A DNA stretch of 41,316 bases from positions 1-41,316 of the IMG/VR virus record IMGVR_UViG_3300045988_047412; one strand, given 5' to 3'. The notes under the pieces are model-generated. The model made no database searches. It was not told where the DNA came from and saw only the letters and a list, made by a program, of their open reading frames with translations. The stretch is from a virus. Shown here in pieces: positions 1-41,316 of this stretch. The position numbers and the translations under genes were made by a program. The number at the start of each line of letters is the position of its first letter. The first letter of the stretch is position 1.

Positions 1-119
1 TGAATGGCTGTCCTCGCTTGGCTAAAACTCCAAAATATTATGCACAGTGAAACAGAGTAAAATGCTCTGTTTCACTGCTTTTTATGGAGGTGCTATACAT
101 AATTGATTTCTGTTCATAA
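1..119. repeat. Terminal direct repeat: 1..119 is identical to 41198..41316 (circular-contig overlap or terminal redundancy)
   Basis: Read directly: both copies run tgaatggctgtcc...gatttctgttcataa. Unique length is 41197 bp, and features that reach 41316 continue at position 120. Confidence 0.95.
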
Positions 120-147
120 TGTACCTTATGTGTTGAAGTGCATAAAT
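1..147 (+). mobile_element. Right end of the RIT element (continuation of 37892..41316 across the circular junction)
   Basis: Holds the last 25 nt of the third recombinase CDS (1..25), terminator hairpin 45..77, inverted-repeat module CATAATTGATTTCTGTTCATAAT 98..120 and CATAAAT 141..147. The methyltransferase frame resumes at 148. Confidence 0.7.
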
Positions 148-393
148 GACGTTTTCCCAGACCATATACCGAGGTCGCAGAAACTCACCTGTTCTCCCGC
201 TTGCCATGTCATGTTCTCTCATCTCCTTCACGACCCTGATCTGTTCCATGTATAGGCCGGAGCGCGCCCCGGCCAGCCCTGCCCGCTTTCCGGCAATAGA
301 AAGGTCCTGACACGGACTGCCGCCGATCACCACATCCACAACGGGGGCCTCCGCTCCATTGATCTTCGTTATGTCACCAAGATGGAGCATCAT
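148..393 (-). pseudogene. C5 DNA-cytosine methyltransferase, upstream segment (motif III GDI, motif IV GGSPCQDLS, motif VI WENV), interrupted after ENV by the RIT element
   Basis: ORF-track ORF 82..393: MMLHLGDITKING...VVIGGSPCQDLSIAGKRAG...RPRYMVWENV, then unrelated IYALQH... read-through into the element (82..147). RBS GGAGGTGGA; ATGA start/stop overlap with the upstream gene at 390-393. Confidence 0.85.
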
Positions 394-2476: not shown

Positions 2477-2488
2477 TCGCCCACCGCC

Positions 2489-2887: not shown

Positions 2888-3189
2888 GAAATAGCTCCCT
2901 TTCTGTAAATCATGTCCTCCCGGTTCCAATCCGGGTAAAATGCTTTCATGTGCGCCACCAGCCGCACATAGATGCGCTCGCGGTCTCGTAATGGACCCTC
3001 GTCAAACAGGCGGTGGCAGCGGGGGCAGAGGGTGGCAATGTTCTGCTCGATTCCTCTGCCGCCCTGCGAACGCCGTACCACATGGGCCACCGGCGCGCCT
3101 GCGGGAGACCCGCAGATCACGCACTGGTGATTGTCTCGTGCCCATACAACAACCTTCACGGATTGTGGGATGGACGTGGCCTTTGTCAT
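2881..3189 (-). CDS. HNH endonuclease
   Basis: CVICG...HVVRRSQGG...NIATLCPRCH. ATGA overlap with the upstream gene at 3186-3189. Confidence 0.8.
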   Translation of the reverse strand: MTKATSIPQSVKVVVWARDNHQCVICGSPAGAPVAHVVRRSQGGRGIEQNIATLCPRCHRLFDEGPLRDRERIYVRLVAHMKAFYPDWNREDMIYRKGAISC

Positions 3190-3710
3190 TTTGTGCATCC
3201 CCATTCCTCCATCATCCCTGCCAGCTTGTCCGGAGACAGGGTCTCAATGCCTTGCTCCTGGCAGTCCTGCACCGCCATATCGATCAAATGTGACATTTGC
3301 CGGGTGTTGTAGGTGCTGGAGCCGTAATACAAAATCACGTTGGTGCAGCCGGGGATCCTGCTTGCCATGGTATCCGTCTGCCAGCCAAGCCCATTGTGTT
3401 CCCACCCGTTCCGCAGCTTTTCCACGGCTGAATCGATCACGCAGACCATTTCATGATTGCCGCCGATCTCCCGAATGTATCTCCGGTAAATATCCGTCTT
3501 GGGAATCCGGGTCTTTTCGGCCAGCCGGTCAACCAGAACCCAGAAGTACGCATTCGCGTCGAGGCTCCGCTTCTCCCGGTGTTCCTTGATCTCCACGTCG
3601 TAGACCTTGCCGGGTTTCAGGCTGTCCAGCGTCCGCCGTGCGTCCTTGGTCTGGATGCAGAGCCAGTCCCCGGCACTGTCCATAGACCAGCGGAATGTAT
3701 CAGCCTGCAT
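3186..3710 (-). CDS. NinB / HNHc_6-like phage recombination-associated protein
   Basis: 174 aa; KRSLDANAYFWVLVDRLAEKT resembles the NinB/putative-HNHc family. Sits between the ERF and HNH genes. Confidence 0.5.
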   Translation of the reverse strand: MQADTFRWSMDSAGDWLCIQTKDARRTLDSLKPGKVYDVEIKEHREKRSLDANAYFWVLVDRLAEKTRIPKTDIYRRYIREIGGNHEMVCVIDSAVEKLRNGWEHNGLGWQTDTMASRIPGCTNVILYYGSSTYNTRQMSHLIDMAVQDCQEQGIETLSPDKLAGMMEEWGCTK

Positions 3711-4290
3711 GATCCTGCTCCTTCTTCGCCAACTTCATGCAGTCGCCGCACAGCTGGGCGCCGAACATCTTCCGGCTGTAAGTCACCATATCCTCCACTT
3801 CCCACGGCTTCCCGTCCCGCTTCTTCACGGGGTAGATGGGCTTCTGACACCGTTCACAGATACACTCCTGCTGGGTCTTGGCCTTGTATTCCAGTTCCTC
3901 CGTGGAGATTTTGTCCGGGTCCTCTCCGGTGGGCAAAGCAAAGGTCCGCAGCCACATATACTTGAACGCATAGGTCATGGCCTTACCGGAACCCTTGTCC
4001 TGTGTGTCTGCGCCATCCCCGCAGGAGGCAATCTCAATGGATTCCTCCGGGTTCTCCACGTTGACCATCCGGTACACCACGTCCACATGGGTAATGTTGC
4101 CGGTGCGGTTGGTGGCCTGAGAGATGGGGAACACCACAAGGTTGTATTTCAGCAGCTCCGCCCGCATGATGGAGGTGACCTTTTCCTCCGACAGCGCCTT
4201 ATAGCTGGTAGAACCGAAGGACACGTGGTCATCCTTGGCCAAGTACTGCACATCCGTCATGATGGCGGCGATTTTCTCATAGATATTCAT
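3700..4290 (-). CDS. ERF-family single-strand annealing protein
   Basis: KGSGKAMTYAFKYMWLRTFALPTGEDPD core typical of the ERF superfamily. C-terminal CxxC...CxxC. Confidence 0.8.
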   Translation of the reverse strand: MNIYEKIAAIMTDVQYLAKDDHVSFGSTSYKALSEEKVTSIMRAELLKYNLVVFPISQATNRTGNITHVDVVYRMVNVENPEESIEIASCGDGADTQDKGSGKAMTYAFKYMWLRTFALPTGEDPDKISTEELEYKAKTQQECICERCQKPIYPVKKRDGKPWEVEDMVTYSRKMFGAQLCGDCMKLAKKEQDHAG

Positions 4291-4772
4291 CACTTCACCC
4301 CCACGCTATAACCATCCACCAGCTCCGCGCCGGGGACGGCTTCTGTTTTCAGGATCTTGGCAAGCTCCGCCTTGCTGATGGTCGGCTCCGCATACTGGAT
4401 GCAGTCCTCATGTGCGTGGTCCTGCAGCCATGCCAGAACAGTGTCAGGATCAGCCACATTCACGCTGGTAGTCTTGCGGAAGATCACCGCGCAGCGGGGG
4501 GATTCAAATTTCTGACCCTGCAAGGCATACGCCAGATAGTCCTTGAGGCGCTTGGCCTTGTTCTCCGCCGCCTTCTGCCGTTCGGCAAAGGCGAGCTTCT
4601 CAGCCTTGTAGGCAGCGGCATCCGCCACCAAATTCTTGTAATATAGCGCGATGTTCTCGATCTTCTGATCTCGCGCCATGCTCAGCCGATCAAATGCGTC
4701 AAAGTCGCTGACCTCACCGGTCTCCGGGTCTACCAGGGCCGTAATGGCTGCGTCAATTTCGTAAAGGTTCAT
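4290..4772 (-). CDS. Siphovirus Gp157-family protein
   Basis: 160 aa, MNLYEIDAAITALVD...ENIALYYKNL...; helical. Lies immediately upstream of the annealing protein, as is usual for Gp157. Confidence 0.65.
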   Translation of the reverse strand: MNLYEIDAAITALVDPETGEVSDFDAFDRLSMARDQKIENIALYYKNLVADAAAYKAEKLAFAERQKAAENKAKRLKDYLAYALQGQKFESPRCAVIFRKTTSVNVADPDTVLAWLQDHAHEDCIQYAEPTISKAELAKILKTEAVPGAELVDGYSVGVK

Positions 4773-4978
4773 TCTTTCCTCCTATATCTCGCAAACCGCA
4801 CGGTCTCGCCGTAGCGGTTCTTCTGTGCGATCGTCTCCACGTCCAGCGCCACGCCGTCCCGCCGCAAGTCGGAGACCCGCGCCGTGAAATTGGCGATGCC
4901 GCACTCGCTCATGGCCTCGGCCCATGTGATGCTGCCGTGTTCATCCAGATACTTCAAGATCCGCTCACACTGGTTCAT
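4769..4978 (-). CDS. Winged-helix DNA-binding protein
   Basis: MNQCERILKYLDEHGSITWAEAMSECGIANFTARVSDLRRDG; RBS GGAGGA upstream of the ATG at 4978. Confidence 0.65.
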   Translation of the reverse strand: MNQCERILKYLDEHGSITWAEAMSECGIANFTARVSDLRRDGVALDVETIAQKNRYGETVRFARYRRKE

Positions 4979-4979
4979 A

Positions 4980-5183
4980 TCAGTCCTCCGGGATGTCGAT
5001 GATCGCGATCCCCATGGCCCGCGCCACGGCTTCCGGATCGCTGTCAACTTCATCCTTGAGCCAATCTTTCGCGCACTCCGGGCAGTAGCACTCGCCGTTG
5101 ATCAAAAACCCCGGAGCCACATCGTCAAACGCATTGGGGTTCATAACGATGGAACATCTTGCGCACACCGGATAGATCTTCAT
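4980..5183 (-). CDS. Small Cys-rich hypothetical protein
   Basis: MKIYPVCARCSIV...CYCPEC; ATGA overlap with the upstream Lar-like gene. Confidence 0.55.
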   Translation of the reverse strand: MKIYPVCARCSIVMNPNAFDDVAPGFLINGECYCPECAKDWLKDEVDSDPEAVARAMGIAIIDIPED

Positions 5184-5380
5184 TTCCACGCATCCCCTCT
5201 CTTCCACGCTTTCGTGGCGTTGGATTGCTGGGCGTAACCCGCTGTGATAGCGCCGCAGGTGGAACACCGTACATAGTGCTTAAACGGTGCGTCCGTGGAC
5301 TGCACCCGCTCACCGCTGTCCATGCCGCAGACCGGGCAGAGATCCAGCGGAAAGCGCTCATGCCGGTTCTTTCTGTTCAT
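5180..5380 (-). CDS. Lar-family restriction alleviation protein (paralog 1)
   Basis: CPVCG...YVRCSTCGA...ATKAW pattern of the Lar_restr_allev family. Start at the internal Met (5380). Confidence 0.55.
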   Translation of the reverse strand: MNRKNRHERFPLDLCPVCGMDSGERVQSTDAPFKHYVRCSTCGAITAGYAQQSNATKAWKRGDAWK

Positions 5381-5502
5381 CGCGCGCTCACCACCATATA
5401 CGCAATGGTGATCAGCAGCAGGGCCAGAAAACTCATAAAGCCCATCCATGCGGAGGCGTCCGCCTTCCGCTGCTCTCTGGTGCGCCGGTCATGCTTTCTC
5501 AT
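5377..5502 (-). CDS. 41-aa membrane peptide
   Basis: Not in the ORF track (<60 aa). ATG at 5502 is preceded by AAGGAGG. Sequence MRKHDRRTREQRKADASAWMGFMSFLALLLITIAYMVVSAR; ATGA overlap with the next gene. Confidence 0.5.
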   Translation of the reverse strand: MRKHDRRTREQRKADASAWMGFMSFLALLLITIAYMVVSAR

Positions 5503-5596
5503 GCGGATTCCCTCCTTCGATGAAATCTACGATCTTGAATACCCAAGTGGCCGCATACGCCACGCCCAGGATCATAAAAAACAGGTTCCAGCTCAT
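5489..5596 (-). CDS. 35-aa hydrophobic peptide
   Basis: MSWNLFFMILGVAYAATWVFKIVDFIEGGNPHEKA; RBS AGAGGGGGA; ATGA overlap with the upstream ORF. Confidence 0.45.
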   Translation of the reverse strand: MSWNLFFMILGVAYAATWVFKIVDFIEGGNPHEKA

Positions 5597-5745
5597 TGTT
5601 TGATGTCCCCCTCTTTGGTGTAAACACCGTCAAACTCAAGGCCATGCTCCCTCGACCAGATCTTGCCGAACTCCGTCATGATCTTCACCGGGTCAGGCGG
5701 AGACACCCAGATCACCCGGTATTCGATTTTTCGTTTCTTCGCCAT
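5593..5745 (-). CDS. 50-aa hypothetical protein
   Basis: MAKKRKIEYRVIWVSPPDPVKIMTEFGKIW...; purine-rich RBS; first gene after the Cro-like gene. Confidence 0.5.
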   Translation of the reverse strand: MAKKRKIEYRVIWVSPPDPVKIMTEFGKIWSREHGLEFDGVYTKEGDIKQ

Positions 5746-5851: not shown

Positions 5852-6077
5852 ATTCCCCATCGCTGGATTCGAACAGTTCGTCCACCGTCACGCCGTACAT
5901 CCTCGCCAGCTTCTTGTGGTACTTCCGTGCCGGTCGCCAGTCACCCAGCTCCCAATGCGTCACACAGGACAAGTCCACATTCAGTTTCTTCGCTACCTGT
6001 GCACGGGTCAGGCTGGAACGTTCTCGAAGTTCCTTCAATGCCAAGTCATGTGCCCTCCTTTCGGTGTGAGAATTCAT
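5850..6077 (-). CDS. Cro-like XRE-family HTH regulator
   Basis: LKELRERSSLTRAQVAKKLNVDLSCVTHWELG. The ATG at 6077 has no SD; an in-frame TTG at 6044 sits 9 nt after AGGAGG and may be the true start. Confidence 0.8.
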   Translation of the reverse strand: MNSHTERRAHDLALKELRERSSLTRAQVAKKLNVDLSCVTHWELGDWRPARKYHKKLARMYGVTVDELFESSDGE

Positions 6078-6105
6078 TGACTGCGGCAGAAATATGTGGT
6101 ATGGT
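6077..6105 (+). promoter_or_regulatory. Sigma-70-type promoter TTGACT-N17-(TGg)TATGGT
   Basis: -35 at 6077..6082, 17-nt spacer, extended -10 TGgTATGGT ending at 6105. Divergent from the Cro-like gene and overlaps its ATG. Confidence 0.55.
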
Positions 6106-6111
6106 AAGCAT

Positions 6112-6230
6112 GGGAGTTAAACTACGCGCCAAATGGCGTACTCTGTTGCAGAGGGGTATTCCATTTAGCAAACGAGTTCGCTTCCAACCGCTCCGAAGTT
6201 TGTTGCAGAGACTTCGGGGCGGTTTTTTAT
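6112..6230 (+). ncRNA. Candidate small RNA (about 115 nt) with two hairpins that both show a UGUUGCAGAG loop; the second is an intrinsic terminator
   Basis: Promoter at 6077-6105. Hairpin 6131..6166 (AAATGG..TACTC-tgttgcagag-GGGTA..CCATTT). Hairpin 6188..6222 (CCGAAGT-ttgttgcagag-ACTTCGG) followed by T6 at 6223-6228. Confidence 0.45.
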
Positions 6231-6258
6231 CTCTGCCGCAGTCAATGTGAGTTTTCAC

Positions 6259-6287
6259 TTGACAAACGAAACCGCCGCCGCTATCAT
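6259..6287 (+). promoter_or_regulatory. Near-consensus promoter TTGACA-N17-TATCAT for the plus-strand immunity operon
   Basis: -35 at 6259..6264, exact 17-nt spacer, -10 at 6282..6287. Confidence 0.6.
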
Positions 6288-6481
6288 GTAAGTGTCAGCC
6301 AACAAAATATCGTCTATGGAACCCGCAAAAAGGATTTTTCTTTGGGGGTCTGGTTTTTTGTTGTCTCTATGATAACTCACGAGATTATTATAGCTTACAT
6401 TTTGTGTGTTGTAAAGCCAAACACGACCATTTTGTTGGTTTTTGTGGAATTGCACAAAAATACATCTATTTTTTGGTAGAT

Positions 6482-7183
6482 ATGCTTTTAGACATTGACT
6501 TAATTCTTGCGCGGCCTAAAGGGCCGAATAACCCGTATGCCTATTATCCAGAACAGTATGAACAAAATTCATCACAAAGCATTATTGCGGCGAACTACAA
6601 ATATGATTTAACTCGTTTTTCGCAACATGAAGCGGATGTCGTCAGGAAAGTGCTGTCTATCGTTAAAACAAAGTACCCTGCGGAATTTCAGTCTCTTGGG
6701 CTTGTGAACGAGGCGTATGTAATAAAGTACAAGCCCCGATACGTACTTTTTGAAATTGCCGTAACAAAATATAGAAATTCGGCATCGGCTTTTGATAAAT
6801 TCGCGGTTGCTTATGCGTTTGCGAACAAAGGAGCTGATTTTAGGCTTGCTGCAATCGGAGCGTTTGAAGAAGCAATCGGAAAAATACCATTTACTGTTTT
6901 AGATAAATTTGCATCGTTAGACTTTACATTTACATGCAATATGTTTTCCAAGTTATACGAGCAAGAGTGGGAATTTGACAACGCCATATTTTGGTTAAAA
7001 AAGGCGATTCGCCGTGGTGGATTAAACAGCAAGTATTTCGCTGAGAGAATCAATAAAATAAAGAAAAGAAAAATTGACGTAATCAGGAACAACAAGCACA
7101 AGCGGAATAGACGGATATCTGTTGAAAACGAAAAATTTGAGCATGACGTACACGCTGCTGCATTACGATTTATTCAGGAGTAG
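6482..7183 (+). CDS. Hypothetical protein, first gene of the low-GC immunity island
   Basis: 233 aa counted from MLLDIDLILARPKG (the ORF track starts at an alternative codon at 6404). No motif recognised; basic KKRK-rich C-terminus. Confidence 0.6.
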   Translation: MLLDIDLILARPKGPNNPYAYYPEQYEQNSSQSIIAANYKYDLTRFSQHEADVVRKVLSIVKTKYPAEFQSLGLVNEAYVIKYKPRYVLFEIAVTKYRNSASAFDKFAVAYAFANKGADFRLAAIGAFEEAIGKIPFTVLDKFASLDFTFTCNMFSKLYEQEWEFDNAIFWLKKAIRRGGLNSKYFAERINKIKKRKIDVIRNNKHKRNRRISVENEKFEHDVHAAALRFIQE

Positions 7184-7185
7184 AT

Positions 7186-7623
7186 ATGCCAAAAAGAGAT
7201 ACAGTCCAACCAAACGTAGATTCGATAGCAGAAAAAGTTTCGGCTAAAAGCTGGAGCGAAGCATCATTTTCGAAAATGATCGGGAAACACAAGAGGTGGT
7301 TAAGTGAAGTAAGGCGTGGGAAAAATCTCCCATCCCCAGAAGAAGCCGCACGGATATGTCAGCTTCTTAAAGCTACTCCCGACGAAATTTTGTTGTGCGA
7401 GGGGGAAACCCCAGAAGCAACCGCAAAGTGCTTAGAGAATATTGAGACGGTGCGGAAACTGGTCGAGGCTGAGGGCATAAAAGAAACCCCCGATCCGAAG
7501 ATCGAGGGTGTGAGCGCGGAAGCGCAGGAAATATTAGATTATATCCGGGATGCGACACCCGCCGAACTGGCGGAAGTCTGCCGGTATATCGGGTATCTGA
7601 AAAGCAAGAGGGGCACGGAATGA
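7186..7623 (+). CDS. HTH DNA-binding protein, candidate CI-like repressor
   Basis: 145 aa; SFSKMIGKHKRWLSEVRRGKNLPSPEEAARICQLL HTH; RBS CAGGAG. Confidence 0.65.
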   Translation: MPKRDTVQPNVDSIAEKVSAKSWSEASFSKMIGKHKRWLSEVRRGKNLPSPEEAARICQLLKATPDEILLCEGETPEATAKCLENIETVRKLVEAEGIKETPDPKIEGVSAEAQEILDYIRDATPAELAEVCRYIGYLKSKRGTE

Positions 7624-8063
7624 AACTGAACCCAGATTGCTTGCGGGATATTATGCTTTTGGTCGAAGATCGTATTTCCGTTGAAACTGCGATTGAAAAT
7701 CCAAATGGGCTAAGAAAATTTAGCTATGTCAGCATTCCCTGTTTGGTGCGCTTGCTTCCTGACAGCTATTCAAAAGAAGAGATCATATATCATATTGTGC
7801 AGCTTTCAGAAAGCGGATACTTAAAAACAGATTTTTCCTTTGCAACAAGCGAAATGTTTGGATACTTTTACTTGAATACAATTTATCACATCACGCCAAA
7901 AGGCCATGACTTTATCGCAAACATCGGGGGAAAAGAAAGCTGGGCAAAAACAAACGCTGTTTTAAAATCCTTGAAGTCAATATCTCTATCGGTAATTGAA
8001 ACGGTGGCAAAGGGTATCACTTCGGCCATAGTAGATCAATACATTGCAGGCTTTCAGGCATAA
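7620..8063 (+). CDS. DUF2513-like protein
   Basis: MKLNPDCLRDIMLLVEDR... N-terminus typical of DUF2513 prophage proteins. ATGA overlap with the upstream gene. Confidence 0.55.
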   Translation: MKLNPDCLRDIMLLVEDRISVETAIENPNGLRKFSYVSIPCLVRLLPDSYSKEEIIYHIVQLSESGYLKTDFSFATSEMFGYFYLNTIYHITPKGHDFIANIGGKESWAKTNAVLKSLKSISLSVIETVAKGITSAIVDQYIAGFQA

Positions 8064-8286
8064 TACTGTACCCGCCGTCATTATTGGCGGTTACAGAAAT
8101 GGGAGCGCTCTTGAATGCTCCTTGCTTTAGCGTTTCATAATTGCTGCATTTAATAGCCTCCGCCAAACAGCCTGGAACAAGCGTAGCGCATTCCGCCGAA
8201 ATGCCAGACGCTTCTAATACGTTGAGACACGCGTTTACAGCTTTAAGGACGTTGGGATTTTCATACCACAATTGATTATACACCAT
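8017..8286 (-). CDS. Hypothetical protein
   Basis: 89 aa with a strong RBS (AAAGGAGGAAACG ATG). Convergent with 7620..8063 and overlaps it by 47 nt. Confidence 0.55.
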   Translation of the reverse strand: MVYNQLWYENPNVLKAVNACLNVLEASGISAECATLVPGCLAEAIKCSNYETLKQGAFKSAPISVTANNDGGYSIMPESLQCIDLLWPK

Positions 8287-8393
8287 CGTTTCCTCCTTTA
8301 ATCATTCGCAGCAATTCTACCTGTTCCTCTTGCGGCAAAAGCAGTACGGCATGCATCAGTTTGTTGCGAATTTCTTCAAGCTGTTCTGTTGCC

Positions 8394-8422
8394 ATTATAT
8401 CACAGTTTGCCGGTAAATCCAA
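8394..8422 (-). promoter_or_regulatory. Near-consensus promoter TTGGAT-N17-(TGa)TATAAT
   Basis: Minus strand reads TTGGATttaccggcaaactgtgaTATAAT; -35 = 8417..8422, -10 = 8394..8399. Drives gene 8017..8286. Confidence 0.6.
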
Positions 8423-8584
8423 CATCTATGTATCCTCCGTTCATCATTTGCGAATAGAACGTCTGTTCGATTATTATAGCACACCACCATGATTTTGCAA
8501 CCGAAAGATATGGGGGCATGACGGTTGCCCGCGCATATTGAATATTTACATATACGCATATAAAAGAATGAAAGGAGCTTTACT

Positions 8585-8833
8585 ATGGTTTGCCCTAATT
8601 GCGGAAGCGAAAATGTAACAATCTCTATGGAGCAAGTGTCAAGTAAAACCAAAAAGCACGGGAACGGCATCGGAGGCCATATCAACAATGCTGCTCGCGG
8701 CTTGATGGCGGTATCAACCCTTGGCATGTCTAATCTCGTGTGGAAGAAAAGCAAAGGTGGCGAAAAGACCGTTGTAAAAAATCAAAAGATTTGCCTTTGC
8801 CAGAATTGCGGAAACTCTTGGGAAATAAAGTAA
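8585..8833 (+). CDS. Zinc-ribbon protein
   Basis: MVCPNCGSENV...CLCQNCGNSWEIK; RBS GAAAGGAG. Confidence 0.7.
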   Translation: MVCPNCGSENVTISMEQVSSKTKKHGNGIGGHINNAARGLMAVSTLGMSNLVWKKSKGGEKTVVKNQKICLCQNCGNSWEIK

Positions 8834-8836
8834 GTG

Positions 8837-8879
8837 AAAAACCCGGCCCCGCCGCCTCTGCAACAAACGGCGGAGCCGG
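8837..8879 (-). terminator. Intrinsic terminator on the minus strand, an inverted homolog of the 6188 hairpin
   Basis: Minus strand: CCGGC-u-CCGCCGU-uuguugcagag-GCGGCGG-g-GCCGG then GTTTTTC. The U-G pair exists only on the minus strand. Confidence 0.6.
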
Positions 8880-9037
8880 AAGCAAGCCGGGGGACGTCGG
8901 CTTGCCGTAATCAAAGCGTAGCAAAAACAGGGTTGGGTGGGCAAGTCCCAAAGCTTGGTTTTTGGCATTTTCAGCCGTTTAAAAGTTTGTGCCGCCTTTA
9001 CCCATATTTTGATTTTGGGGGTAAGGAGGCACTTTTT

Positions 9038-9472
9038 ATGACAATTCAGGAAGTTTGTAAGGCGAAACGTAACGCTTTGGGTATGACCATTCAGGACATA
9101 GCTGAAGCATCGGGAATTCCGCCGTCTACCGTCAACAATTTCTTTACCCATGCTTCCAAGGCCCCCTATATCTCCACGGTTGGGCCAATATGCGCCGTCC
9201 TTGGCGTGTCGCTGGATGAATTTTACGGCATCGGAGATCATCTGACGGCCAGTGAGGAAACGTTGCAAGCGGAAAAGGACGGACTAGAACACCGCCTTGA
9301 GAATAAGCGGCAGACCATCGGCCTGATGGACACAGAACTGTGCAATCTTTGGCACTCCGTGAAGCTATACAGGTGGATCATACTCGGTTTGTCACTATTG
9401 ATCATCGGGCTTTTTGCCTGGTGCGTTTGGGTTGACATCCATTGTGCTAACTATGGATTTTGGAGGGGATAA
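9038..9472 (+). CDS. XRE-family HTH protein with a C-terminal transmembrane helix
   Basis: 144 aa; LGMTIQDIAEASGIPPSTVNNF HTH, coiled segment, then WIILGLSLLIIGLFAWCVWV. RBS TAAGGAGG; stops 2 nt before the integrase start. Confidence 0.75.
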   Translation: MTIQEVCKAKRNALGMTIQDIAEASGIPPSTVNNFFTHASKAPYISTVGPICAVLGVSLDEFYGIGDHLTASEETLQAEKDGLEHRLENKRQTIGLMDTELCNLWHSVKLYRWIILGLSLLIIGLFAWCVWVDIHCANYGFWRG

Positions 9473-9473
9473 C

Positions 9474-10814
9474 ATGTGCCAAAAAATAGTGGTCACTCTA
9501 CCAAAGAATCTACGCATCCGTGTAGCACTGTACATCAGGGTATCGACCGAAGAACAGGCGAAGCACGGACTGTCACTGGCAGACCAGCGGGAGGCCCTGA
9601 CGGCCTATGCCGCAGCACACAACATGGAGGTGGTGGGCATTTACGAGGACGCCGGAATTAGCGCCAGAAAGCCGTATAAAAAGCGTCCGGCCTTGATGCG
9701 CCTACTCGATGATTGCAACGCTGGGAAAGTCGACACCATCCTTTTTGTCAAGCTGGATAGGTGGTTTCGGAATGTGGCAGGGTACTACGCCGTGCAAGAG
9801 GTTCTCGACAAAAATCATGTGGCTTGGCAGGCCATCAGAGAGGACTACGAAACTCGGACTGCATCAGGGCGATTGAAGGTCAATATTATGTTGTCGGTAG
9901 CGCAGGACGAAGCTGACCGCACATCGGAGCGCATTAAGGCCATCAACGAGGGCAAGAGGGCAAAGGGTCAGCCCACCAACGGGAAAACTCCCATCGGCAT
10001 CTGCGTGAAGAATCGGCACTACGCCATTGATAAAGAAACCGCAGATGCGGCGCGAGATATGTTCCCAGCCTTTATACGGCTGCAAAGCATCCTTGCATTA
10101 AGGCGGTATATGGCAACGGAGTGGGGAATCAAACGCTCGTACAACAAATACAAGGATGCTTTGGGAAACCGGTTGTACTTGGGTGAGGCGTTCGGCGTGG
10201 AAAACGCATTGCCAGCACTCATCGATCAAGAAACCTTTGACCTTGCCGGAAAAATCCTTGAACGGCGAAGCCAGCGGAACGCCAGTGCGGATCGAATATA
10301 TTTGTTTACCGGGATTCTCCGCTGCCGGGAGTGCGGGAGAAACATGCAGCCGGAAACTGTAAAACAGGTGTACAAGTACTACCGATGCAGAACGCACACA
10401 CTCGACCCAGCCGACTGTCCGCACATTCTCAGGATCCGGGAAGATGTGCTGGAGGATTACCTTCTGCGGGAATTTGAGGGGATCGCAAAAAAGTATTACT
10501 CCAAATCAAAAACCGCAGAAAAAAAGCCGCCCAAAACGGCGGAGCAAATCAAGCGGAAAATGCAAAAACTGAAAGACCTGTATTTGTCGGATTTGATTGA
10601 AATCGAAGAATACAAAAAAGACTATACGGAATTGAAACAGCAGCTCGCGGCAATAAACCCAGAGCCTATAAAAGAATTTGACCTTGAAACATTACGGCGA
10701 GAGTTGAAGGAATATCCTGATTTAGACCGGCAGGCAAAAAAGGAATTCTGGGTACGCACAATCCAGCGCATCGACGCAGACAATGATGGTGCGTTTTTTA
10801 TAACGCCAAGTTAG
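9474..10814 (+). CDS. int: Large serine recombinase (phage integrase)
   Basis: 446 aa; ALYIRVSTEEQ...GLSLADQ resolvase catalytic domain, recombinase domain, zinc ribbon CRECG...YYRCRTH, C-terminal coiled coil. RBS GGAGGGGA. Confidence 0.9.
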   Translation: MCQKIVVTLPKNLRIRVALYIRVSTEEQAKHGLSLADQREALTAYAAAHNMEVVGIYEDAGISARKPYKKRPALMRLLDDCNAGKVDTILFVKLDRWFRNVAGYYAVQEVLDKNHVAWQAIREDYETRTASGRLKVNIMLSVAQDEADRTSERIKAINEGKRAKGQPTNGKTPIGICVKNRHYAIDKETADAARDMFPAFIRLQSILALRRYMATEWGIKRSYNKYKDALGNRLYLGEAFGVENALPALIDQETFDLAGKILERRSQRNASADRIYLFTGILRCRECGRNMQPETVKQVYKYYRCRTHTLDPADCPHILRIREDVLEDYLLREFEGIAKKYYSKSKTAEKKPPKTAEQIKRKMQKLKDLYLSDLIEIEEYKKDYTELKQQLAAINPEPIKEFDLETLRRELKEYPDLDRQAKKEFWVRTIQRIDADNDGAFFITPS

Positions 10815-10856
10815 TCTTATTTTCATGTCGCAACGCCTACGTTAAAATATAACTAA
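10811..10856. other. Candidate attP for the serine integrase
   Basis: 46-bp imperfect dyad right at the integrase stop: TTAGTCTTATTTTCATGTCGC-AA-CGCCTACGTTAAAATATAACTAA. Outer TTAGT/ACTAA and ATTTT/AAAAT match. Confidence 0.3.
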
Positions 10857-10881
10857 CCCCCCGGCATTTGCCGAGGGGGTT
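10855..10881. terminator. Bidirectional hairpin terminator between the convergent integrase and cargo operon
   Basis: AACCCCC-CGGC-attt-GCCG-a-GGGGGTT, with an A-rich run upstream and a T-rich run downstream. Confidence 0.7.
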
Positions 10882-10885
10882 AAGT

Positions 10886-11188
10886 TTAGTTTTCCAATTT
10901 CCGCATGACGCTATTATAAACCCGCTCGTTGACCACTTTCAAGCTGTCCATCAGCTCGTCCATGACCTCCCACGCACGGGCTGTGTCAACGTTAGACACC
11001 GCCCGGAGGAAATCGCTGTCAGGCGCGGGAGCCGCAGAATACGCCTCAGCCATACGGCTTTCCCTCACCGGCTCTCGGTTCTGGTTTTGGATGGTATACA
11101 GTGCCGCCAGTCTTTCATAGTTCGCCCAGCTGGACTCTTCTGTTTCTAACCGCTTGATCCATAGCGCCAATTCTCGCTCGTCAATCAT
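10886..11188 (-). CDS. Hypothetical helical protein (last gene of the cargo operon)
   Basis: 100-aa ORF, MIDERELALWIKRLETEESSW...; no motif recognised. Confidence 0.6.
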   Translation of the reverse strand: MIDERELALWIKRLETEESSWANYERLAALYTIQNQNREPVRESRMAEAYSAAPAPDSDFLRAVSNVDTARAWEVMDELMDSLKVVNERVYNSVMRKLEN

Positions 11189-31774: not shown

Positions 31775-31949
31775 ACGCGCCCTCCTTTCTCGCAGTCAGC
31801 TTTCTCGCCACCAATGTATGCAGGCCATTCATGGCCCCTGTAATATCGCCGGACTTAATCAGCCCGTTCAGTGTTTTCATTTGCTGTGTGGATAAATACT
31901 GCTGGTTTTTCTTCAACATCCTCCGCGCAGTCGCCTGAGCATCAGTCAT
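31704..31949 (-). CDS. Small hypothetical protein (81 aa)
   Basis: MTDAQATARRMLKKNQQYLSTQQMKTLNGLIKSGDITGAMNGL. The ATG overlaps the methylase stop; the 3' end overlaps the terS start, so the extent is uncertain. Confidence 0.4.
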   Translation of the reverse strand: MTDAQATARRMLKKNQQYLSTQQMKTLNGLIKSGDITGAMNGLHTLVARKLTARKEGAYGKAKKGNRPEAVRKPLRPAMHA

Positions 31950-33132
31950 GCAGAAGCACCGCCTTCTTCCCGGTGAACTTCTCCCACCGGTCAACAATGA
32001 CGTCGGCATACTTTGGATCATACTCCATGCAGAAAGCGTGTCTGCCATTCTGCTCCGCCGCCATAATCGTGGTGCCGGAGCCAGCGAACAGATCAAGCAC
32101 ATTCTCACCCGGCTTACTGGAGCACTGCATCTGGTAATCAAACAGCTTAATCGGCTTCATGGTCGGATGCTCCGCAGACTTGACAGGCTTATCGAAATTC
32201 AATACAGTTGTCTGTCTGCGGTTTTTGAAGAAGTAGTGCTTCTTGCCTTCCGTCCATCCGTAAAGGCAAGGCTCGTGCGCGTCCTCTTCAATTTCGCTCT
32301 CACCGTACAGGCAAGGTTCATGTTTCCACTGGAAATCCTGTCTCCCCATTACGAGGGAATTCTTCACCCAAATCAGGCACTGCCGGACGCGCAGCATCGA
32401 ATCTTTACACGCACCACGGAAGTTATAACCTTCGCTGTCGGCGTGCCAAATGTAAAATGGAGCGCCTGGTTTCATGACCATCGCCGCATTGGAGAAAGCA
32501 TCCGTCAGGAACTGCCTAAAGGCTGCATCTTCCATGTTATCGTTCTTGATTTTACCGGCGGTGCCCTGATAGTCCACATTGTACGGAGGATCGGTGAGAA
32601 GAAGATCGATTTGTGCCCCCCCCACAAGCTTCTGTACGTCTGTCAAAGACGTGCTGTCTCCGCACATAAGGCGATGGTCTCCAAGCTGGTACACATCGCC
32701 CAGCTTGCTCTTCGGCTCCGCCGGAATGACAGGTTCATAATCATCCTCGACAACGGAATCGTTCAGTTCGTCACGCAGACCCCATTCAAAGTCAAACGCC
32801 GACAGGTCGAGACCGGGCAGCTCATCAGCCAGGAGGTCAAAATCCCAGTCGCTCTCGTTGCTCTTGTTATCCACCAGCCGCAGGGCGTTCACCTGCTCCG
32901 GTGTAAGATCGTCTACGCAGACGCACGGTACTTCTTCCATGCCCAGCTTTTTTGCCGCCAAAGCGCGGCAGTGACCGATTACGATCACGCCGTCACGGTC
33001 AATCACAATCGGCTGTACAAATCCGTACTGCTTGATGCTCTCCGCAACGTTGTTGATTTGCCGCTTATCATGCTTTTTTGCATTTGCGGCATACGGAACA
33101 ATATCCGCAAGCCGCCGTTTTGTGATTTCCAT
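31942..33132 (-). CDS. ParB-like N-terminal domain fused to an N6-adenine/N4-cytosine DNA methyltransferase
   Basis: 396 aa; ParB-N KQYGFVQPIVIDRDGVIVIGHCR; motif IV TDPPYN; motif I VLDLFAGSGTT. RBS CAGGAGGA. Confidence 0.9.
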   Translation of the reverse strand: MEITKRRLADIVPYAANAKKHDKRQINNVAESIKQYGFVQPIVIDRDGVIVIGHCRALAAKKLGMEEVPCVCVDDLTPEQVNALRLVDNKSNESDWDFDLLADELPGLDLSAFDFEWGLRDELNDSVVEDDYEPVIPAEPKSKLGDVYQLGDHRLMCGDSTSLTDVQKLVGGAQIDLLLTDPPYNVDYQGTAGKIKNDNMEDAAFRQFLTDAFSNAAMVMKPGAPFYIWHADSEGYNFRGACKDSMLRVRQCLIWVKNSLVMGRQDFQWKHEPCLYGESEIEEDAHEPCLYGWTEGKKHYFFKNRRQTTVLNFDKPVKSAEHPTMKPIKLFDYQMQCSSKPGENVLDLFAGSGTTIMAAEQNGRHAFCMEYDPKYADVIVDRWEKFTGKKAVLLHD

Positions 33133-36725: not shown

Positions 36726-37891
36726 AATTCATCCTTTCCGTATGGGAACAAAAAGCGCCCCATGTCTCCTGGTTTCTCTACCGTGCCGAACCGCCGTTTG
36801 GTCACTGCGATGGGAAACTCTTCAATCTCGCTGGCCCATAGGCACGTTCCGCGTCCGTTCAACTGCTCCCAGATCAGCGGGAAACCACCTATTCCATCGA
36901 ACAAACTTGCCATAGTCGCGTCCCGCTCGTAGTTGCCGCACAGCCGTTTCAACAGCCATTTCCACGGCGGCAGGGCGATGGAGTTGCCCAGTGCCTTATA
37001 CCGGGGGCTGTCCGCGTCCTTATGGCGCTTGCCCTTGCTGTCCGTCCACTCGCCCAAGTCGGTCCAGTGGTCAGGGAATCCCTGAAGCCGTTCGCACTCC
37101 AACGGGGTCAGACGGCGAACAACACGGTTCTGCACCGGGTATGTCTCCGAATCCTCCCGGAAATCGCAGTTTGCTTTTGCCTTTAGCGTGTGTGCGATAT
37201 CCGGTACAGCCGCTCCGCATACCAGCATATCGTTATAGGCATCCTGCCCATTATAGCTCCCTGCGTGTGCTCCGGGCGATAAAGTCCCGGTGGTTTTCTG
37301 GTACGTCAGCGGGATTTGGTTGCCGCCGGTTCCCATACGGGCTTGCAGACTGGGAGCTACCTCACCGCAGTCTCGGATGACATCGCAGGCGTGGCTCATA
37401 TCCAGAATGGCGCACGGCACATGGGCGTTGGCGTTCAGCGTGTGACAGGGTTTCCCAAAATCAGGAATACTCCCATTCTGCTTGCTGGTGATCTGCGTAG
37501 TATCAAACTCCGTCGCATCTCCCCGGATTCGGACTGCGTAAGCAGCACCGCTTTCAGCACTGGCGGCAAGGCTTTCCCCCGCCGCTCCGCTCTCCGCAGG
37601 ATACCCTGACATGCTTTGCCGCTCAAACAATATTTCCCATGCGGTGTCGCCTCCAAAATCTGCGACAAGCGCGATTCTACGGCGACGTTGGGGGACTCCC
37701 CAGTGTTGCGCATCGAGCACTCGCCACGCAACGCTCCATCGTCCTCCCATTTCATCGTGGTATCCCCCCCAGGTGTTCCAACCTTTTTCAGGCACTTCAA
37801 TATCGGGGGCTTCCGGCTCTGCGACCCGGATGGCTTCTTCGAGGACGGCCGCAAAGTCTTTTCCTCCGTTGCTTGAGAAGGCTCCGGGAAC
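36722..37891 (-). pseudogene. C5 DNA-cytosine methyltransferase, downstream segment (motif VI remainder, VIII, TRD, IX, X, then motifs I and II at the C-terminus)
   Basis: ORF 36722..37909. From codon 37891: VPGAFSSNGG, GVPQRRRRIALVA, RRLTPLECERLQGFP, YKALGNSIALP, then in frame MASLFDGIGGF and WASEIEEF. The first 6 codons of the tracked ORF (37892..37909) are RIT-end sequence. Confidence 0.85.
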
Positions 37892-38018
37892 ATTATGAGT
37901 TGTAAGCAATTATGAAAAGACCTCCTTCCAAAATATTGAAATTTCTTTGAGAATTAAAAAGATGCTGTGCATAATTTCCCTTTATACTGTGAGCATCACA
38001 ATATAAAGGAGGCAAACT

Positions 38019-39251
38019 ATGCACAGCAGAAAGACAGTTCCAATCCCTGACTTGATGAGCGCAGCAAATATGGAGTTGATCCGTCTGGACTTCAAATCGT
38101 CAACCCTCAGTCGGCATAGCAAGGAGTTCCGTAGCTTCTCCAATTATTGCAGAGAAAACGAGATTACCGCTTATGACGCAGAAACCGGACCACAATACTT
38201 CCAACACTGTTATGGTTTGGACATCGGTAACTCCACCGCAAAACTGACCAAGCAACAACTGGACACACGCTGTTCGATTCGTTTTTTGGATGACATCTTT
38301 CAATTTGGGTATGCACTGCGATACAGCCACCATGACTACACAGTGCCACGGCAATATGTCGATTTACTGGAAGAATACCTTGCATGGTGCCACAGAAATA
38401 ATAGTTCTGATGGTACTATCCGTGTCAAGCGGACAAAGATACGGCAATTTTTTTGCTTTTTGGATGGGCGCGGAATAGAACTTTCAGATTTAACCGCTGC
38501 AGAAATTTCGGACTTCATGACCACCCTGTGCCGCTACCATCGTGCAACTATCCATGTATTCAGCAGCGTTTTACGTGATTTCTTCCGCTATCTCCATGAA
38601 AATGGGATATTGGACGATGACTTATCTTCAAGTGTTCCAAGGCCAAAGATCTACGTTGAAGAAAATATCCCCGAAACGTGGGCCCCAGAGGAAGTACGAC
38701 AATTATTGTCCGTTATTGACCGCAGCAATGCGATTGGAAAAAGAGATTACGCAATGCTTCTGCTTGCTATTCTGCTGGGCATGAGGGCTGGAGACATCTG
38801 TGCATTGAAATTCAAAAATCTGGACTGGCACCAGAAACTGATCACCTATACACAGCAAAAAACGCAAAAGGTCAATACACTGCCTCTGCTCCCTGTAATT
38901 GGAGATGCCATCATTGACTATCTGAAAAATGGGCGGTTGGATTCTGACTGTGATAATGTGTTTATCCGCCATATCCATCCTTACGGAGAATTCCAGTCCA
39001 GCACAACTCTTTCCGAAAACCTCAAGCGATATATGAAATATGCAGGTATGACAGTAAAGAAGCGCAAAGCAGCCCATTCACTGCGTCATACTCTGGCAAG
39101 CAGCCTCTTGTATGATGGTACACCGCTTATGACGATCTCCAACATCCTTGGGCACAACAGCCCAAAAACGACCTCCGTATATACCAAAGTAGACCTTCCG
39201 GCCTTGCGGAAATGTGCATTATCTTATGGAGAACGGAGGGAATTGATATGA
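38019..39251 (+). CDS. Tyrosine recombinase, first of trio (RitA-like)
   Basis: 410 aa; AHSLRHTLASSLL...ILGHNSPKTTSVYTKVD; RBS AAAGGAGG. Confidence 0.85.
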   Translation: MHSRKTVPIPDLMSAANMELIRLDFKSSTLSRHSKEFRSFSNYCRENEITAYDAETGPQYFQHCYGLDIGNSTAKLTKQQLDTRCSIRFLDDIFQFGYALRYSHHDYTVPRQYVDLLEEYLAWCHRNNSSDGTIRVKRTKIRQFFCFLDGRGIELSDLTAAEISDFMTTLCRYHRATIHVFSSVLRDFFRYLHENGILDDDLSSSVPRPKIYVEENIPETWAPEEVRQLLSVIDRSNAIGKRDYAMLLLAILLGMRAGDICALKFKNLDWHQKLITYTQQKTQKVNTLPLLPVIGDAIIDYLKNGRLDSDCDNVFIRHIHPYGEFQSSTTLSENLKRYMKYAGMTVKKRKAAHSLRHTLASSLLYDGTPLMTISNILGHNSPKTTSVYTKVDLPALRKCALSYGERRELI

Positions 39252-40222
39252 CTTCAAAAATGTTGTTGGAGCAGTATATGGCGGAACGTCATGCTCTTGG
39301 GTTCAGCCTGAAAACGGATGAGGGTTGTATCCGGCGCTTCCTCCAGGACTTTGCTGAGCCCGATGATGGAGAGATTTCGTTTACAAAAGAATATGTTTTA
39401 GACCATATTGGAAACAGACGGAACCTGCAAACCAATACCATCCTCAGAGATGTCAGCGCAATCAATGGATTTCTCGATTTTGTGATCCGCAAAGGCTATA
39501 CAGCATATAAGATCCCTCCTAAATCTCTCCCGAAAGAAAACCGCAATTTTAGAGCCTATATTTTTACGGACGACGAGATTGAGCGGATGCTGACTGCAGC
39601 GGATCATGTGCCATTTACGGAGCAGAACCCTGCACGAAAATACCAGATTCCTGTTATGTTCCGAATCTTATTCAACTGCGGATTGCGTACTTCTGAATTG
39701 CTTAAACTGCGCATGTGCGATGTAAACCTCAAAGGAAATGTGTTTACCATTTTGGATACGAAATTTCACAAAAACCGCTTGGTGCCATTCTCTGATACAG
39801 TTGCAGAATCCTTGACTCAATATCTGGAAATGTCCCCTCCAAAATCTACAGATTCCTTGCTTTTTCCAAGTTTGAACCCACGCAGCAACGGCGGAAGATA
39901 CGGGAACAGTTGGCTGCAAGCTCAATTTCGCCAGCTCCTCAGAACGGCGGGTATTCCTTACAATGGTTCAGGAAAAGGCCCTCGGCCTCATGATATCCGC
40001 CACACATTTGCGGTACACTGTCTTAACAACTGGGTCCTTTCGGGTGAAGATCTTACCGCTGCGCTACCCGTACTTTCACGGTATCTTGGACATAATGGAC
40101 TGACCGGCACGCAAAAATATCTTCAATTGACGGCGCAAATGTACCCAGATATTGTTGCCAAATTAGAAGTGCAATTTGGTGGTCTCATTCCCCAGATGGA
40201 GGTGTCCAATGAAAGCATCTGA
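39248..40222 (+). CDS. Tyrosine recombinase, second of trio (RitB-like)
   Basis: 324 aa from MTSKMLLEQY; ATGA overlap with the first gene; PHDIRHTFAVHCL...YLGHNGLTGTQKYLQLT. Confidence 0.85.
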   Translation: MTSKMLLEQYMAERHALGFSLKTDEGCIRRFLQDFAEPDDGEISFTKEYVLDHIGNRRNLQTNTILRDVSAINGFLDFVIRKGYTAYKIPPKSLPKENRNFRAYIFTDDEIERMLTAADHVPFTEQNPARKYQIPVMFRILFNCGLRTSELLKLRMCDVNLKGNVFTILDTKFHKNRLVPFSDTVAESLTQYLEMSPPKSTDSLLFPSLNPRSNGGRYGNSWLQAQFRQLLRTAGIPYNGSGKGPRPHDIRHTFAVHCLNNWVLSGEDLTAALPVLSRYLGHNGLTGTQKYLQLTAQMYPDIVAKLEVQFGGLIPQMEVSNESI

Positions 40223-41222
40223 CTTCTCCAAATTTTTGACGCAGTACCTTACACACTATCTGCCCGTCCAGAGAAATCTGAGCAGCAATACAATTCGTTC
40301 CTACCGGGATACGTTTAAACTCCTCCTGATTTTTTGCAGAGACGAGAAAGGCTTTAATATTGCAAAGCTGAATCTGTCCAAGTTGGACAAAAAGTGTATA
40401 GAGGACTTCCTTCTGTGGCTGACTAATACCAGAGGTTCTTCCCCATCTACTTACAACCAGCGCCTTTGCGCCATTCACGCTTTCTTTGATTATGTTATGA
40501 CCGAAGAACCGACGTATATGGAGCAGTGCATTTTAATCCTCAAAATTCCAAGCATGGTATCTCCCGACCCGCCCGCGCAGTACTTAACGCCAGAAAATTT
40601 GAAACATTTATTGTCTATGCCGGATACCTCTACTCCTAAAGGACGGAGGCATCTTGTCTTGCTAACTGTTTTGTATGATACAGCAGCTCGTGTTAGTGAA
40701 CTTGCGGATATTTGTATGCGGGATGTGCGATTAGATTTCCCAGCAGTTATTACTCTGCATGGAAAAGGCGGGAAGATTCGTACAGTGCCTCTCATGAAAC
40801 CGACTACTGAATTGTTACGTAGTTACCTTGAGGAAAACCACATTGATTTGCGACGAAACCCAGATATGCCCCTGTTTTGGAATGGAAGCAGACACAAACT
40901 GACCCGTTCTGGAATTACATACATCGTCCAGAAATATGCAGATATGGCACGGGAAACTGCCTCTGGGATGCCTACCAAAATCTCGCCTCATATTTTTCGC
41001 CATACGAAAGCCATGCATATGGTACAGGCCAATGTTAATCCGGTCTTTATTAAAGATTATCTGGGACACGCCGACATCTCTACCACTGAGGTCTATGCCA
41101 GAGCAGACAATGAAGCCAAGCGAGCTGCTTTGGAGAAGGCTACAGCCCATCTTGATCTACCGAAAGCATCTCAGTGGGAACAGGATGCTGAGTTGATTGA
41201 ATGGCTGTCCTCGCTTGGCTAA
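40209..41222 (+). CDS. Tyrosine recombinase, third of trio (RitC-like)
   Basis: 337 aa from MKASDFSKFL; RBS GGAGGTG; 14-nt overlap with the second gene; PHIFRHTKAMHMV...YLGHADISTTEVYARAD. Confidence 0.85.
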   Translation: MKASDFSKFLTQYLTHYLPVQRNLSSNTIRSYRDTFKLLLIFCRDEKGFNIAKLNLSKLDKKCIEDFLLWLTNTRGSSPSTYNQRLCAIHAFFDYVMTEEPTYMEQCILILKIPSMVSPDPPAQYLTPENLKHLLSMPDTSTPKGRRHLVLLTVLYDTAARVSELADICMRDVRLDFPAVITLHGKGGKIRTVPLMKPTTELLRSYLEENHIDLRRNPDMPLFWNGSRHKLTRSGITYIVQKYADMARETASGMPTKISPHIFRHTKAMHMVQANVNPVFIKDYLGHADISTTEVYARADNEAKRAALEKATAHLDLPKASQWEQDAELIEWLSSLG

Positions 41223-41241
41223 AACTCCAAAATATTATGCA

Positions 41242-41281
41242 CAGTGAAACAGAGTAAAATGCTCTGTTTCACTGCTTTTTA
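41242..41281 (+). terminator. Intrinsic terminator of the recombinase trio
   Basis: CAGTGAAACAGAG-taaaatg-CTCTGTTTCACTG (perfect 13-bp stem) followed by CTTTTTAT. Confidence 0.8.
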
Positions 41282-41316
41282 TGGAGGTGCTATACATAAT
41301 TGATTTCTGTTCATAA

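Follow-up and report, generated by a model that had tools for sequence, protein, structure and literature searches.

How does a gut phage come to carry three recombinase genes between the codons of a catalytic motif of its own DNA methyltransferase, and by what route could such genes arrive and leave again? The question is raised by virus record IMGVR_UViG_3300045988_047412, of which the whole stretch of 41,316 nucleotides (positions 1 to 41,316; hereafter the window) was analysed. A preliminary description, made from the letters alone, had noted a three-recombinase (RIT-type) mobile element within a C5-methyltransferase gene. Judged by its sequence, the insertion of 3,456 bp that carries ritA, ritB and ritC is indeed a RIT (recombinase-in-trio) element, and it is very probably an autonomous, recently mobile one that inserts site-specifically at the codons for the ENVPG motif of C5-methyltransferases. 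This reading is built upon family membership, a shared target rule, a common layout of the ends, an empty site, a swap of 6 bp at the junctions, footprint-like alleles and contigs that carry the joined ends.

The split gene and its empty site

The minus-strand open reading frames (ORFs) on either side of the insertion are two parts of one C5-methyltransferase gene, as had been proposed. Joined in silico, the flanks give a continuous 470-aa protein in which ENVPG is restored, and it is identical to database protein P0121. The uninterrupted gene that was to be sought in related phages is found in the same place, as P0121 sits on a 38.9-kb phage contig (L024), and both flanks are 99.5–99.9% identical to the window. 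By comparison with this empty site the inserted DNA amounts to 3,456 bp (37893..41197 plus 1..151). The earlier figure of about 3453 bp has to be given up, and the break points proposed with it would duplicate the Val codon. Bases 1–119 of the record are identical to 41198–41316, and since this terminal direct overlap of 119 bp shows the contig to be circular (the true circle being 41,197 bp), the element runs on into 120–151. The parts of the gene and its junctions are as follows.

1..119, no strand: assembly overlap, identical to 41198-41316
152..393, minus strand: 5' part of the C5-methyltransferase gene (motifs III, IV and VI); the target-derived DNA ends in GAAAA
36722..37892, minus strand: 3' part of the C5-methyltransferase gene, from Val-Pro of ENVPG onward (empty-site comparison)
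37887..37892, within that 3' part: the target's own 6-bp overlap GGAACA, reverse complement TGTTCC (empty-site comparison)
146..151, plus strand: donor-derived 6-bp overlap ATGACG, reverse complement CGTCAT (empty-site comparison)

The GAAAA border takes in the whole Glu codon of ENV and, of its Asn codon, the first two bases. The empty site (attB) reads TGGGAAAA-TGTTCC-CGGAGCC, while in the window the ENV-side junction is TGGGAAAA-CGTCAT-TTATG and the PG-side junction CATAA-TGTTCC-CGGAGCC. The target hexamer TGTTCC stays on the PG side, the foreign, donor-derived CGTCAT is on the ENV side, and the target is not duplicated. The RAC match that had been noted on both flanks is present, but it belongs to this 6-bp crossover region and marks no target-site duplication. 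Two other copies of the element (L002 and L003) have CGTCAT as the spacer of their unused internal site, which is what a hexamer carried along by the element would lead one to expect. A target-site duplication was considered and rejected, as in about half of the copies the hexamers of the two junctions are unlike each other, and by comparison with the empty site only one of them is target-derived. The window holds no second intact target, and its two one-mismatch matches are at chance level. An ENA contig of 41,309 bp (L112) is 100% identical to the window across 11.2 kb, insertion included; it was left out as independent evidence because it may come from the same sample.

The methyltransferase itself is circularly permuted, with motifs III-IV-VI-VIII followed by the target-recognition domain, motifs IX-X and, at the C-terminus, motifs I-II. 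The latter read FDGIGG...ASEIE, and the canonical N-terminus aligns to residues 408–461. Intact relatives of P0121, of 470–730 aa, have the same permuted order and differ by inserted specificity modules.

A recombinase trio with a common target

The coordinates confirm the three tandem tyrosine-recombinase genes of the preliminary description, their lengths and their overlaps, which are of 4 nt (ATGA) between ritA and ritB and of 14 nt between ritB and ritC.

38019..39251, plus strand: ritA, 410 aa (Pfam, pHG1 match, catalytic alignment, structure model)
39248..40222, plus strand: ritB, 324 aa (Pfam, pHG1 match, catalytic alignment)
40209..41222, plus strand: ritC, 337 aa (Pfam, pHG1 match, catalytic alignment)

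All three proteins match the Pfam family Phage_integrase (PF00589; E 1e-24 to 4e-29). The C-terminal catalytic box seen earlier in each is part of a complete R-K-H-R-H-Y hexad: R256, K281, H353, R356, H379 and Y388 in RitA, R147, K172, H248, R251, H282 and Y291 in RitB, and R161, K186, H261, R264, H287 and Y296 in RitC. XerD was used as the ruler for this alignment and served only to place the columns.

Elements with the gene order ritA-ritB-ritC are said to have been described in Cupriavidus metallidurans CH34 and C. necator pHG1, by Van Houdt in 2009 and 2012 and by Ricker in 2013. The trio of pHG1, a replicon in which RIT elements have been described and which was named RIT-rich (PMC3414803), gives reciprocal and collinear best matches to RitA (31.5% identity, E 3e-61), RitB (36.9%, 6e-69) and RitC (49.4%, 2e-114), with weak off-diagonal matches (E 1e-14 to 1e-10). 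This one-to-one orthology bears out the class proposed at the outset, for which a comparison with RitA, RitB and RitC had been advised. The A-B-C order is kept in about 80 genomes or loci of many phyla where the contig is long enough, and RitA relatives are likewise found across many phyla. An exact-protein look-up of RitA (P0001) returned a single contig, and the RitA cluster has 2,383 members. NCBIfam has no RIT-specific model and gave only sub-threshold matches to XerC/XerD and integron integrases.

Other features are also shared with known RIT elements. The pHG1 element has overlapping A-B-C genes, palindromic terminal repeats and an identical site layout, and imperfect palindromic repeats of 47–51 bp have been reported at RIT ends (PMC5737581), with which the ends of the present element agree. 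RitA has the duplicated N-terminal helical domain of the family: its AlphaFold model shows two four-helix bundles (residues 9–97 and 111–194) before the catalytic domain, with block-mean predicted local distance difference test (pLDDT) values mostly of 70–93 and two blocks lower. Two sequential core-binding domains have been reported for RitA (Smyshlyaev 2021). In the N-terminus of the present RitA, Pfam recognizes the SAM-like domain at 114–202 alone, and a BLAST comparison of the two N-terminal halves with each other was not significant (E 0.09). In RitC a tail of about 40 aa past Tyr296 aligns end to end with that of pHG1 RitC, and it may correspond to the extra C-terminal helix of the family. 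Unlike the Cupriavidus RITs, this clade occurs in gut Clostridia, their phages and conjugative-element-like regions, and it differs from known RITs in that a protein-motif target, an empty site, a 6-bp coupling swap and footprint-like alleles can be documented for it.

The target becomes clear when copies in other genes are compared. The same element, at 99.8% identity, is present in MT838034 (L001, 'Bacteriophage sp.', from human faeces), where it interrupts a different, non-permuted C5-methyltransferase gene between ENV and PG with its rit genes co-directional with the host gene. Two further methyltransferase genes carry it on contigs from IMG/VR (L002) and ENA (L003), so that 99.8% identical copies are known in three other methyltransferase genes. 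With RitA homologues at 79% identity (P0035 and P0038), fragments of PF00145 flank nearly all of the places returned, and the neighbourhoods are typical of the anti-restriction regions of conjugative elements, plasmids or phages. Taking one genome per species, all loci with RitA at ≥55% identity and enough flank sit at the ENVPG motif, in Vescimonas, Intestinimonas, Pseudoflavonifractor, Flintibacter, Oscillibacter, Ruminococcus and Pseudobacteroides. The RitA of Vescimonas sanitatis MH37-1 (L027) is 100% identical to that of the window. The distinct flanks number 19 on the ENV side and 20 on the PG side, and both orientations occur. The consensus GARAA-YGTNCC-NGG is invariant or nearly so and encodes E-N-V-P-G (motif VI). 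At least 19 different C5-methyltransferase genes are thus occupied by the element and its relatives down to 55% RitA identity, and the comparison supports the ENVPG site as the specific target of this whole RIT branch rather than a place of chance insertion.

More distant loci, with RitA at 31–41% identity, are not in methyltransferase genes. At least 11 of them (RitA 31–36%) lie directly after G-(T/V)-P-Q-G-G in ORFs for group II intron reverse transcriptases and have the same end layout with the overlap GGNGGA; in silico removal of one copy (L052) restores a protein with RVT_1 plus GIIM. The intron loci recorded are L047, L048, L052, L053, L055, L065, L066, L068, L079, L080 and L095. Other clades probably have further targets.

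Some relatives carry cargo. In L004–L013 there is a 257-aa ORF without a Pfam hit downstream of ritC (about 9276-10049 in L004), and in L039 a 430-aa ORF (4330-5622), radical-SAM-like as judged from its sequence, lies between the left end and ritA. L039 also has a group II intron reverse transcriptase ORF (1643-3864) directly upstream of the methyltransferase 5' part that bears the RIT, and the mobile elements there appear to be nested or adjacent.

The ends of the element and its movement

The ends of the element indicate how it may move. In the window they are made up of the following.

37893..37897, plus strand: left end, core half-site e, TTATG (layout common to all relatives)
37910..37914, plus strand: left end, accessory half-site f, TTATG, after a 12-bp spacer (layout common to all relatives)
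41295..41299, plus strand: right end, accessory half-site a, CATAA (= bases 98-102)
41312..41316, plus strand: right end, core half-site b, CATAA, after a 12-bp spacer (= bases 115-119)
120..125, plus strand: O1, TGTACC, spacer of the second core site
126..130, plus strand: half-site c, TTATG, of the second core site
131..140, plus strand: 10-bp centre of the c-d unit, between c and d
141..145, plus strand: half-site d, CATAA, which abuts O2

The nested end repeats listed in the preliminary description are all at their positions: TTATG at 37893 and 37910 mirrors CATAA at 98–102 and 115–119, and repeats stand at 0, 17 and 73 bp from both ends. They are conserved among relatives, so that both an empty-site variant and conserved terminal repeats exist. 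The third, ATTTATG-like copy (141–147) also exists, but it is not stray, being a half-site of the second core site. In every copy, read in the sense of the methyltransferase, the ENV end is ENV-O-TTATG(c)-N10-CATAA(d)-O2-TTATG(e)-N12-TTATG(f), followed by the rit genes and the PG end, CATAA(a)-N12-CATAA(b)-O-PG. The c-d unit of 22 bp is always on the ENV side and its inner 10 bp are oriented with the rit genes, a pattern that only a circular form able to cross over at either of two sites would explain. Two other explanations were rejected. Inversion in situ, with the internal core site and the far junction as its end points, would leave c-d unflipped, yet the inner 10 bp turn with the genes at every junction examined where orientation was comparable. 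The c-d unit is not part of the target gene either, as it turns with the element and is found in genes unrelated to one another.

The intact O1 site, CATAA-TGTACC-TTATG (115–130), is the only CATAA-N6-TTATG in the window, where 0.04 would be expected by chance. The spacer of the unused site varies between copies, usually fits YGTNCC and resembles what an earlier target might have left behind. The integration seen in the window used O2. The pHG1 RIT (L107, 51.3–54.9 kb) has the same layout, TAGCGC-AAATG-N10-CATTT-GCGCTA-TTACC-N12-TTATG ... CATAA-N12-GGTAA-TAGCGC, with an O2 that is the exact reverse complement of O. It uses three half-site types (AAATG/CATTT, TTACC/GGTAA and TTATG/CATAA), which hints at one recombinase per type, and the gut clade uses TTATG/CATAA throughout. 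All RITs examined share one layout, with two inverted core sites in a palindrome of about 76 bp. The joined ends themselves were seen in two metagenome contigs from different sets (L113 and L114), in which the right end runs through b-O1-c-N10-d-O2-e into the left end; these junctions would fit circles or head-to-tail tandems. Two short contigs (L029 and L030) reach just to the ends of the element, have no terminal overlap and are uninformative on circles.

From these sites a mechanism can be proposed. RitA, RitB and RitC, which are Xer-like, are predicted to bind the TTATG/CATAA half-sites, and joining of the ends would create the palindrome of about 76 bp, a-N12-[b-O1-c]-N10-[d-O2-e]-N12-f, with two inverted dif-like core sites. 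Either core site could recombine with GARAA-YGTNCC-NGG. Use of O1 would place the rit genes co-directional with the methyltransferase and use of O2 would place them opposite, as in the window, the c-d unit ending up on the ENV side whichever was used. Strand exchange would flank the 6-bp overlap without requiring its identity, and therefore one junction would keep the 6 bp of the target and the other receive the 6 bp of the previous site, with no duplication. Excision would rejoin the gene in frame, either exactly or with a 6-bp footprint. While the element is inserted the methyltransferase of the carrier would be knocked out; the target lies in codons that are conserved in a gene often found on phages and conjugative elements, and as the element has no transfer genes it would spread by riding such carriers. 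Which protein binds which site, that the intermediate is a double-stranded circle, and that hitch-hiking gives the selective advantage are inferred.

To judge by traces in intact genes, excision has evidently occurred in nature. Two of the alleles seen in intact homologues depart from ENVPG, one with ENVVG (P0132) and one with ENFVG (P0144), and both changes alter the catalytic motif. L108 is identical to allele X (L111) over 243 nt upstream of the change, and downstream, through gene position 500, it has the same differences from X as allele Y (L024). The 6-bp window reads TGTCGT in L108, TTTCGT in L110, TGTCCC in X and TGTTCC in Y. These intact alleles (L108/L109 and L110) are chimeras that pass from one parent to the other exactly at the crossover hexamer, and at the junction they are changed within these 6 bp only, which suggests that the element shuffles gene halves between phages. 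Since the hexamer matches neither parent and the switch falls on it, they look like excision footprints left after an exchange between two occupied alleles. Elements with like flanks on both sides were also found. In L016, L022 and the isolate-genome locus L039 there are two ENV sides, which are 5' halves of different methyltransferase genes, and two c-d units; in L023, the isolate-genome locus L033 and possibly L032 there are two PG sides (3' halves) and no c-d unit. Recombination between copies inserted in opposite directions would be expected to give just these two reciprocal products.

Several points weigh against a mobile element acting in this way. The rule for the side that receives the donor 6 bp comes from a single filled/empty pair. 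The junction contigs could derive from tandem dimers and not circles, and low-k assembly joins are possible; the segment shared by the two integrated states is only about 20–32 bp. The footprint alleles could in principle stem from recombination plus clustered mutation, and the support for excision consists of assembled contigs and alleles, not of reads or experiments on this phage. Lastly, some of this may already be described in the principal paper on RITs, that of Ricker et al. 2013.

With the same element and target a different route of movement is possible, though less likely than exchange through a double-stranded circle. As in the strand-biased circularizing elements (SEs), one strand might be copied out or exchanged. 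The joined ends would fold as a single-stranded hairpin to form one core site, like attP(+) of CTX-phi or integron attC, and replication would resolve the single strand exchange. The joined ends are strong palindromes in three RIT clades (single-stranded DNA folding z-scores of -6.3, -12.1 and -12.5), perfect or nearly so in pHG1 and L053/L066. The recombinases are Xer-like and integron-integrase-like; SE and Tn554 elements share the one-sided 6-bp fingerprint; the donor 6 bp of the window is found at the ENV junction, where exchange of the first strand alone would put it; and a mobilome study that found no circular RIT junctions proposed hairpin intermediates (Nielsen et al.). In the methyltransferase clade, however, O1 and O2 are often non-complementary, with 0–4 mismatches in 6, and would leave a bubble in the hairpin, though such a bubble is tolerated in CTX-phi. 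The occurrence of both orientations would call for the use of both strands or both cleavage sites, and the junction contigs are compatible with double-stranded circles.

The expression signals of the element raise another possibility. They comprise the following.

37947..37975, plus strand: promoter-like TTGAGA-N17-CATAAT upstream of ritA, with its -10 hexamer inside subterminal repeat g (10 of 12 matches)
37965..37975, plus strand: subterminal repeat g, CTGTGCATAAT, which mirrors 41234-41244
41234..41244, plus strand: subterminal repeat g', ATTATGCACAG, which overlaps the intrinsic terminator
41242..41274, plus strand: intrinsic terminator with a 13-bp stem and T-run

The promoter and terminator lie where they had been placed before, and the lower GC content (guanine plus cytosine) of the element is also borne out (0.45 against about 0.55 in the flanks). 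As a subterminal repeat overlaps the -10 hexamer, the level of recombinase could feed back on expression. The insertion is reversible and in frame, and filled and empty versions of nearly the same phage coexist in public data. It might then be a domesticated switch, through which regulated excision and reintegration controls self-methylation of the phage in the manner of phase variation or 'active lysogeny'. This is improbable. The same element is in at least 19 unrelated methyltransferase genes, of phages, conjugative-element-like regions and chromosomes, and sister clades are in intron reverse transcriptases, a spread that argues for a selfish site-specific transposon rather than a host-specific regulator. 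The element contains no gene for a directionality factor or sensor, and the ENVVG and ENFVG footprints alter a catalytic motif, an outcome not to be expected of a dedicated switch.

Tyrosine recombinases are frequent in phages and the contig is a metagenome assembly, but a resident phage module (for integration or dimer resolution) or an assembly chimera beside a degraded pseudogene is excluded by the empty-site phage with its intact gene, the 99.8% identical element in other genes and records, the junction architecture conserved in isolate genomes and the serine integrase of the phage itself.

As to the carrier, searches against PHROG identified genes for the large terminase, portal, major head protein, tape-measure protein, tail fibre and a large serine integrase, and from these matches the window is taken to be a tailed temperate phage. 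A second low-GC stretch (0.41–0.52; about 6000-11000) holds the serine integrase gene (9414-10814) and is probably the lysogeny module. A second phage methyltransferase, a ParB-N6/N4 fusion, is encoded at 31942-33132, so that the phage still has a DNA methylase with the C5 enzyme lost.

Known systems and the wider meaning

The element is of a known kind, RIT, and its behaviour as resolved here appears to be new. A 2023 comparison of tyrosine-recombinase transposons marked the target specificity, empty site and movement of RITs as not tested, and no report of recombinase trios that target methyltransferases or introns was found in the literature searched, Ricker et al. 2013 lying outside it. 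The nearest parallels are Tn554 and the SE elements, which also have several tyrosine recombinases, insert site-specifically in either orientation without target duplication, and carry 6 bp from the previous site to one junction. This is a likeness of mechanism and not membership, as they have no orthology to RitABC and their targets differ (att554 in radC, and others). Tn554 has two recombinases (TnpA and TnpB) and the non-recombinase TnpC, whereas the third RIT protein is a full tyrosine recombinase. SE elements have IntA, Tfp, IntB and Srap, and the four genes of SE and GInt include the catalytically dead Tfp/GinC and Srap/GinD, whereas RITs have three genes only, all catalytically complete. 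No description of a double inverted core site for Tn554 or SE was found in the literature searched.

In Tn916, too, the overlaps need not match, heteroduplex junctions segregate so that one side is donor-derived, and excision leaves the target or the donor hexamer; unlike RIT, it has a single integrase with Xis, loose AT-rich targets and conjugation genes. Elements of the CTX-phi-type IMEX and integron attC sites resemble RIT in the action of Xer-like recombinases on two inverted core sites or a foldable palindrome. IMEX depend upon host XerCD at dif, whereas RITs encode their own recombinases and here target a methyltransferase coding sequence; integrons use one IntI, and neither has three recombinases or a coding-motif target. 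Homing-endonuclease introns and inteins also choose target DNA that encodes an invariant catalytic motif, which gives both them and RITs a wide range of host genes and pressure against escape mutations. They move by double-strand-break repair and not by tyrosine recombination, and unlike them RITs do not splice and inactivate the host gene while it is occupied. Two other groups were set aside: Tn6104–6106 are serine-recombinase elements, and 'Tyroviruses' have three dispersed recombinases that form no trio.

Beyond this branch, it seems somewhat more probable than the contrary that RITs in general are site-specific hunters of mobile elements, with a shared palindrome of about 76 bp (two abutting, inverted dif-like core sites and accessory sites), clade-specific targets in the conserved-motif codons of mobile-DNA genes (between ENV and PG in C5-methyltransferases, directly after PQGG in group II intron reverse transcriptases), a 6-bp swap and the shuffling of gene halves.

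If this wider reading is true, a family with an open question of movement since 2009 would have its first defined target, empty site, footprint and junction, and a 30-bp target would suffice for a direct test. The locus supplies natural states before insertion, after insertion and after excision, and with a 14-bp target rule and a complete predicted site map the reaction could be rebuilt from the three recombinases, the site of 76 bp and a target of 30 bp. Annotation pipelines will label such genes as split pseudogenes beside 'XerC/XerD' genes. The element can be regarded as a parasite of parasites, a transposon without transfer genes that disables anti-restriction methyltransferase genes on phages and conjugative elements and apparently creates chimeric methyltransferase alleles, and a second RIT clade treats group II intron reverse transcriptases in the same way.

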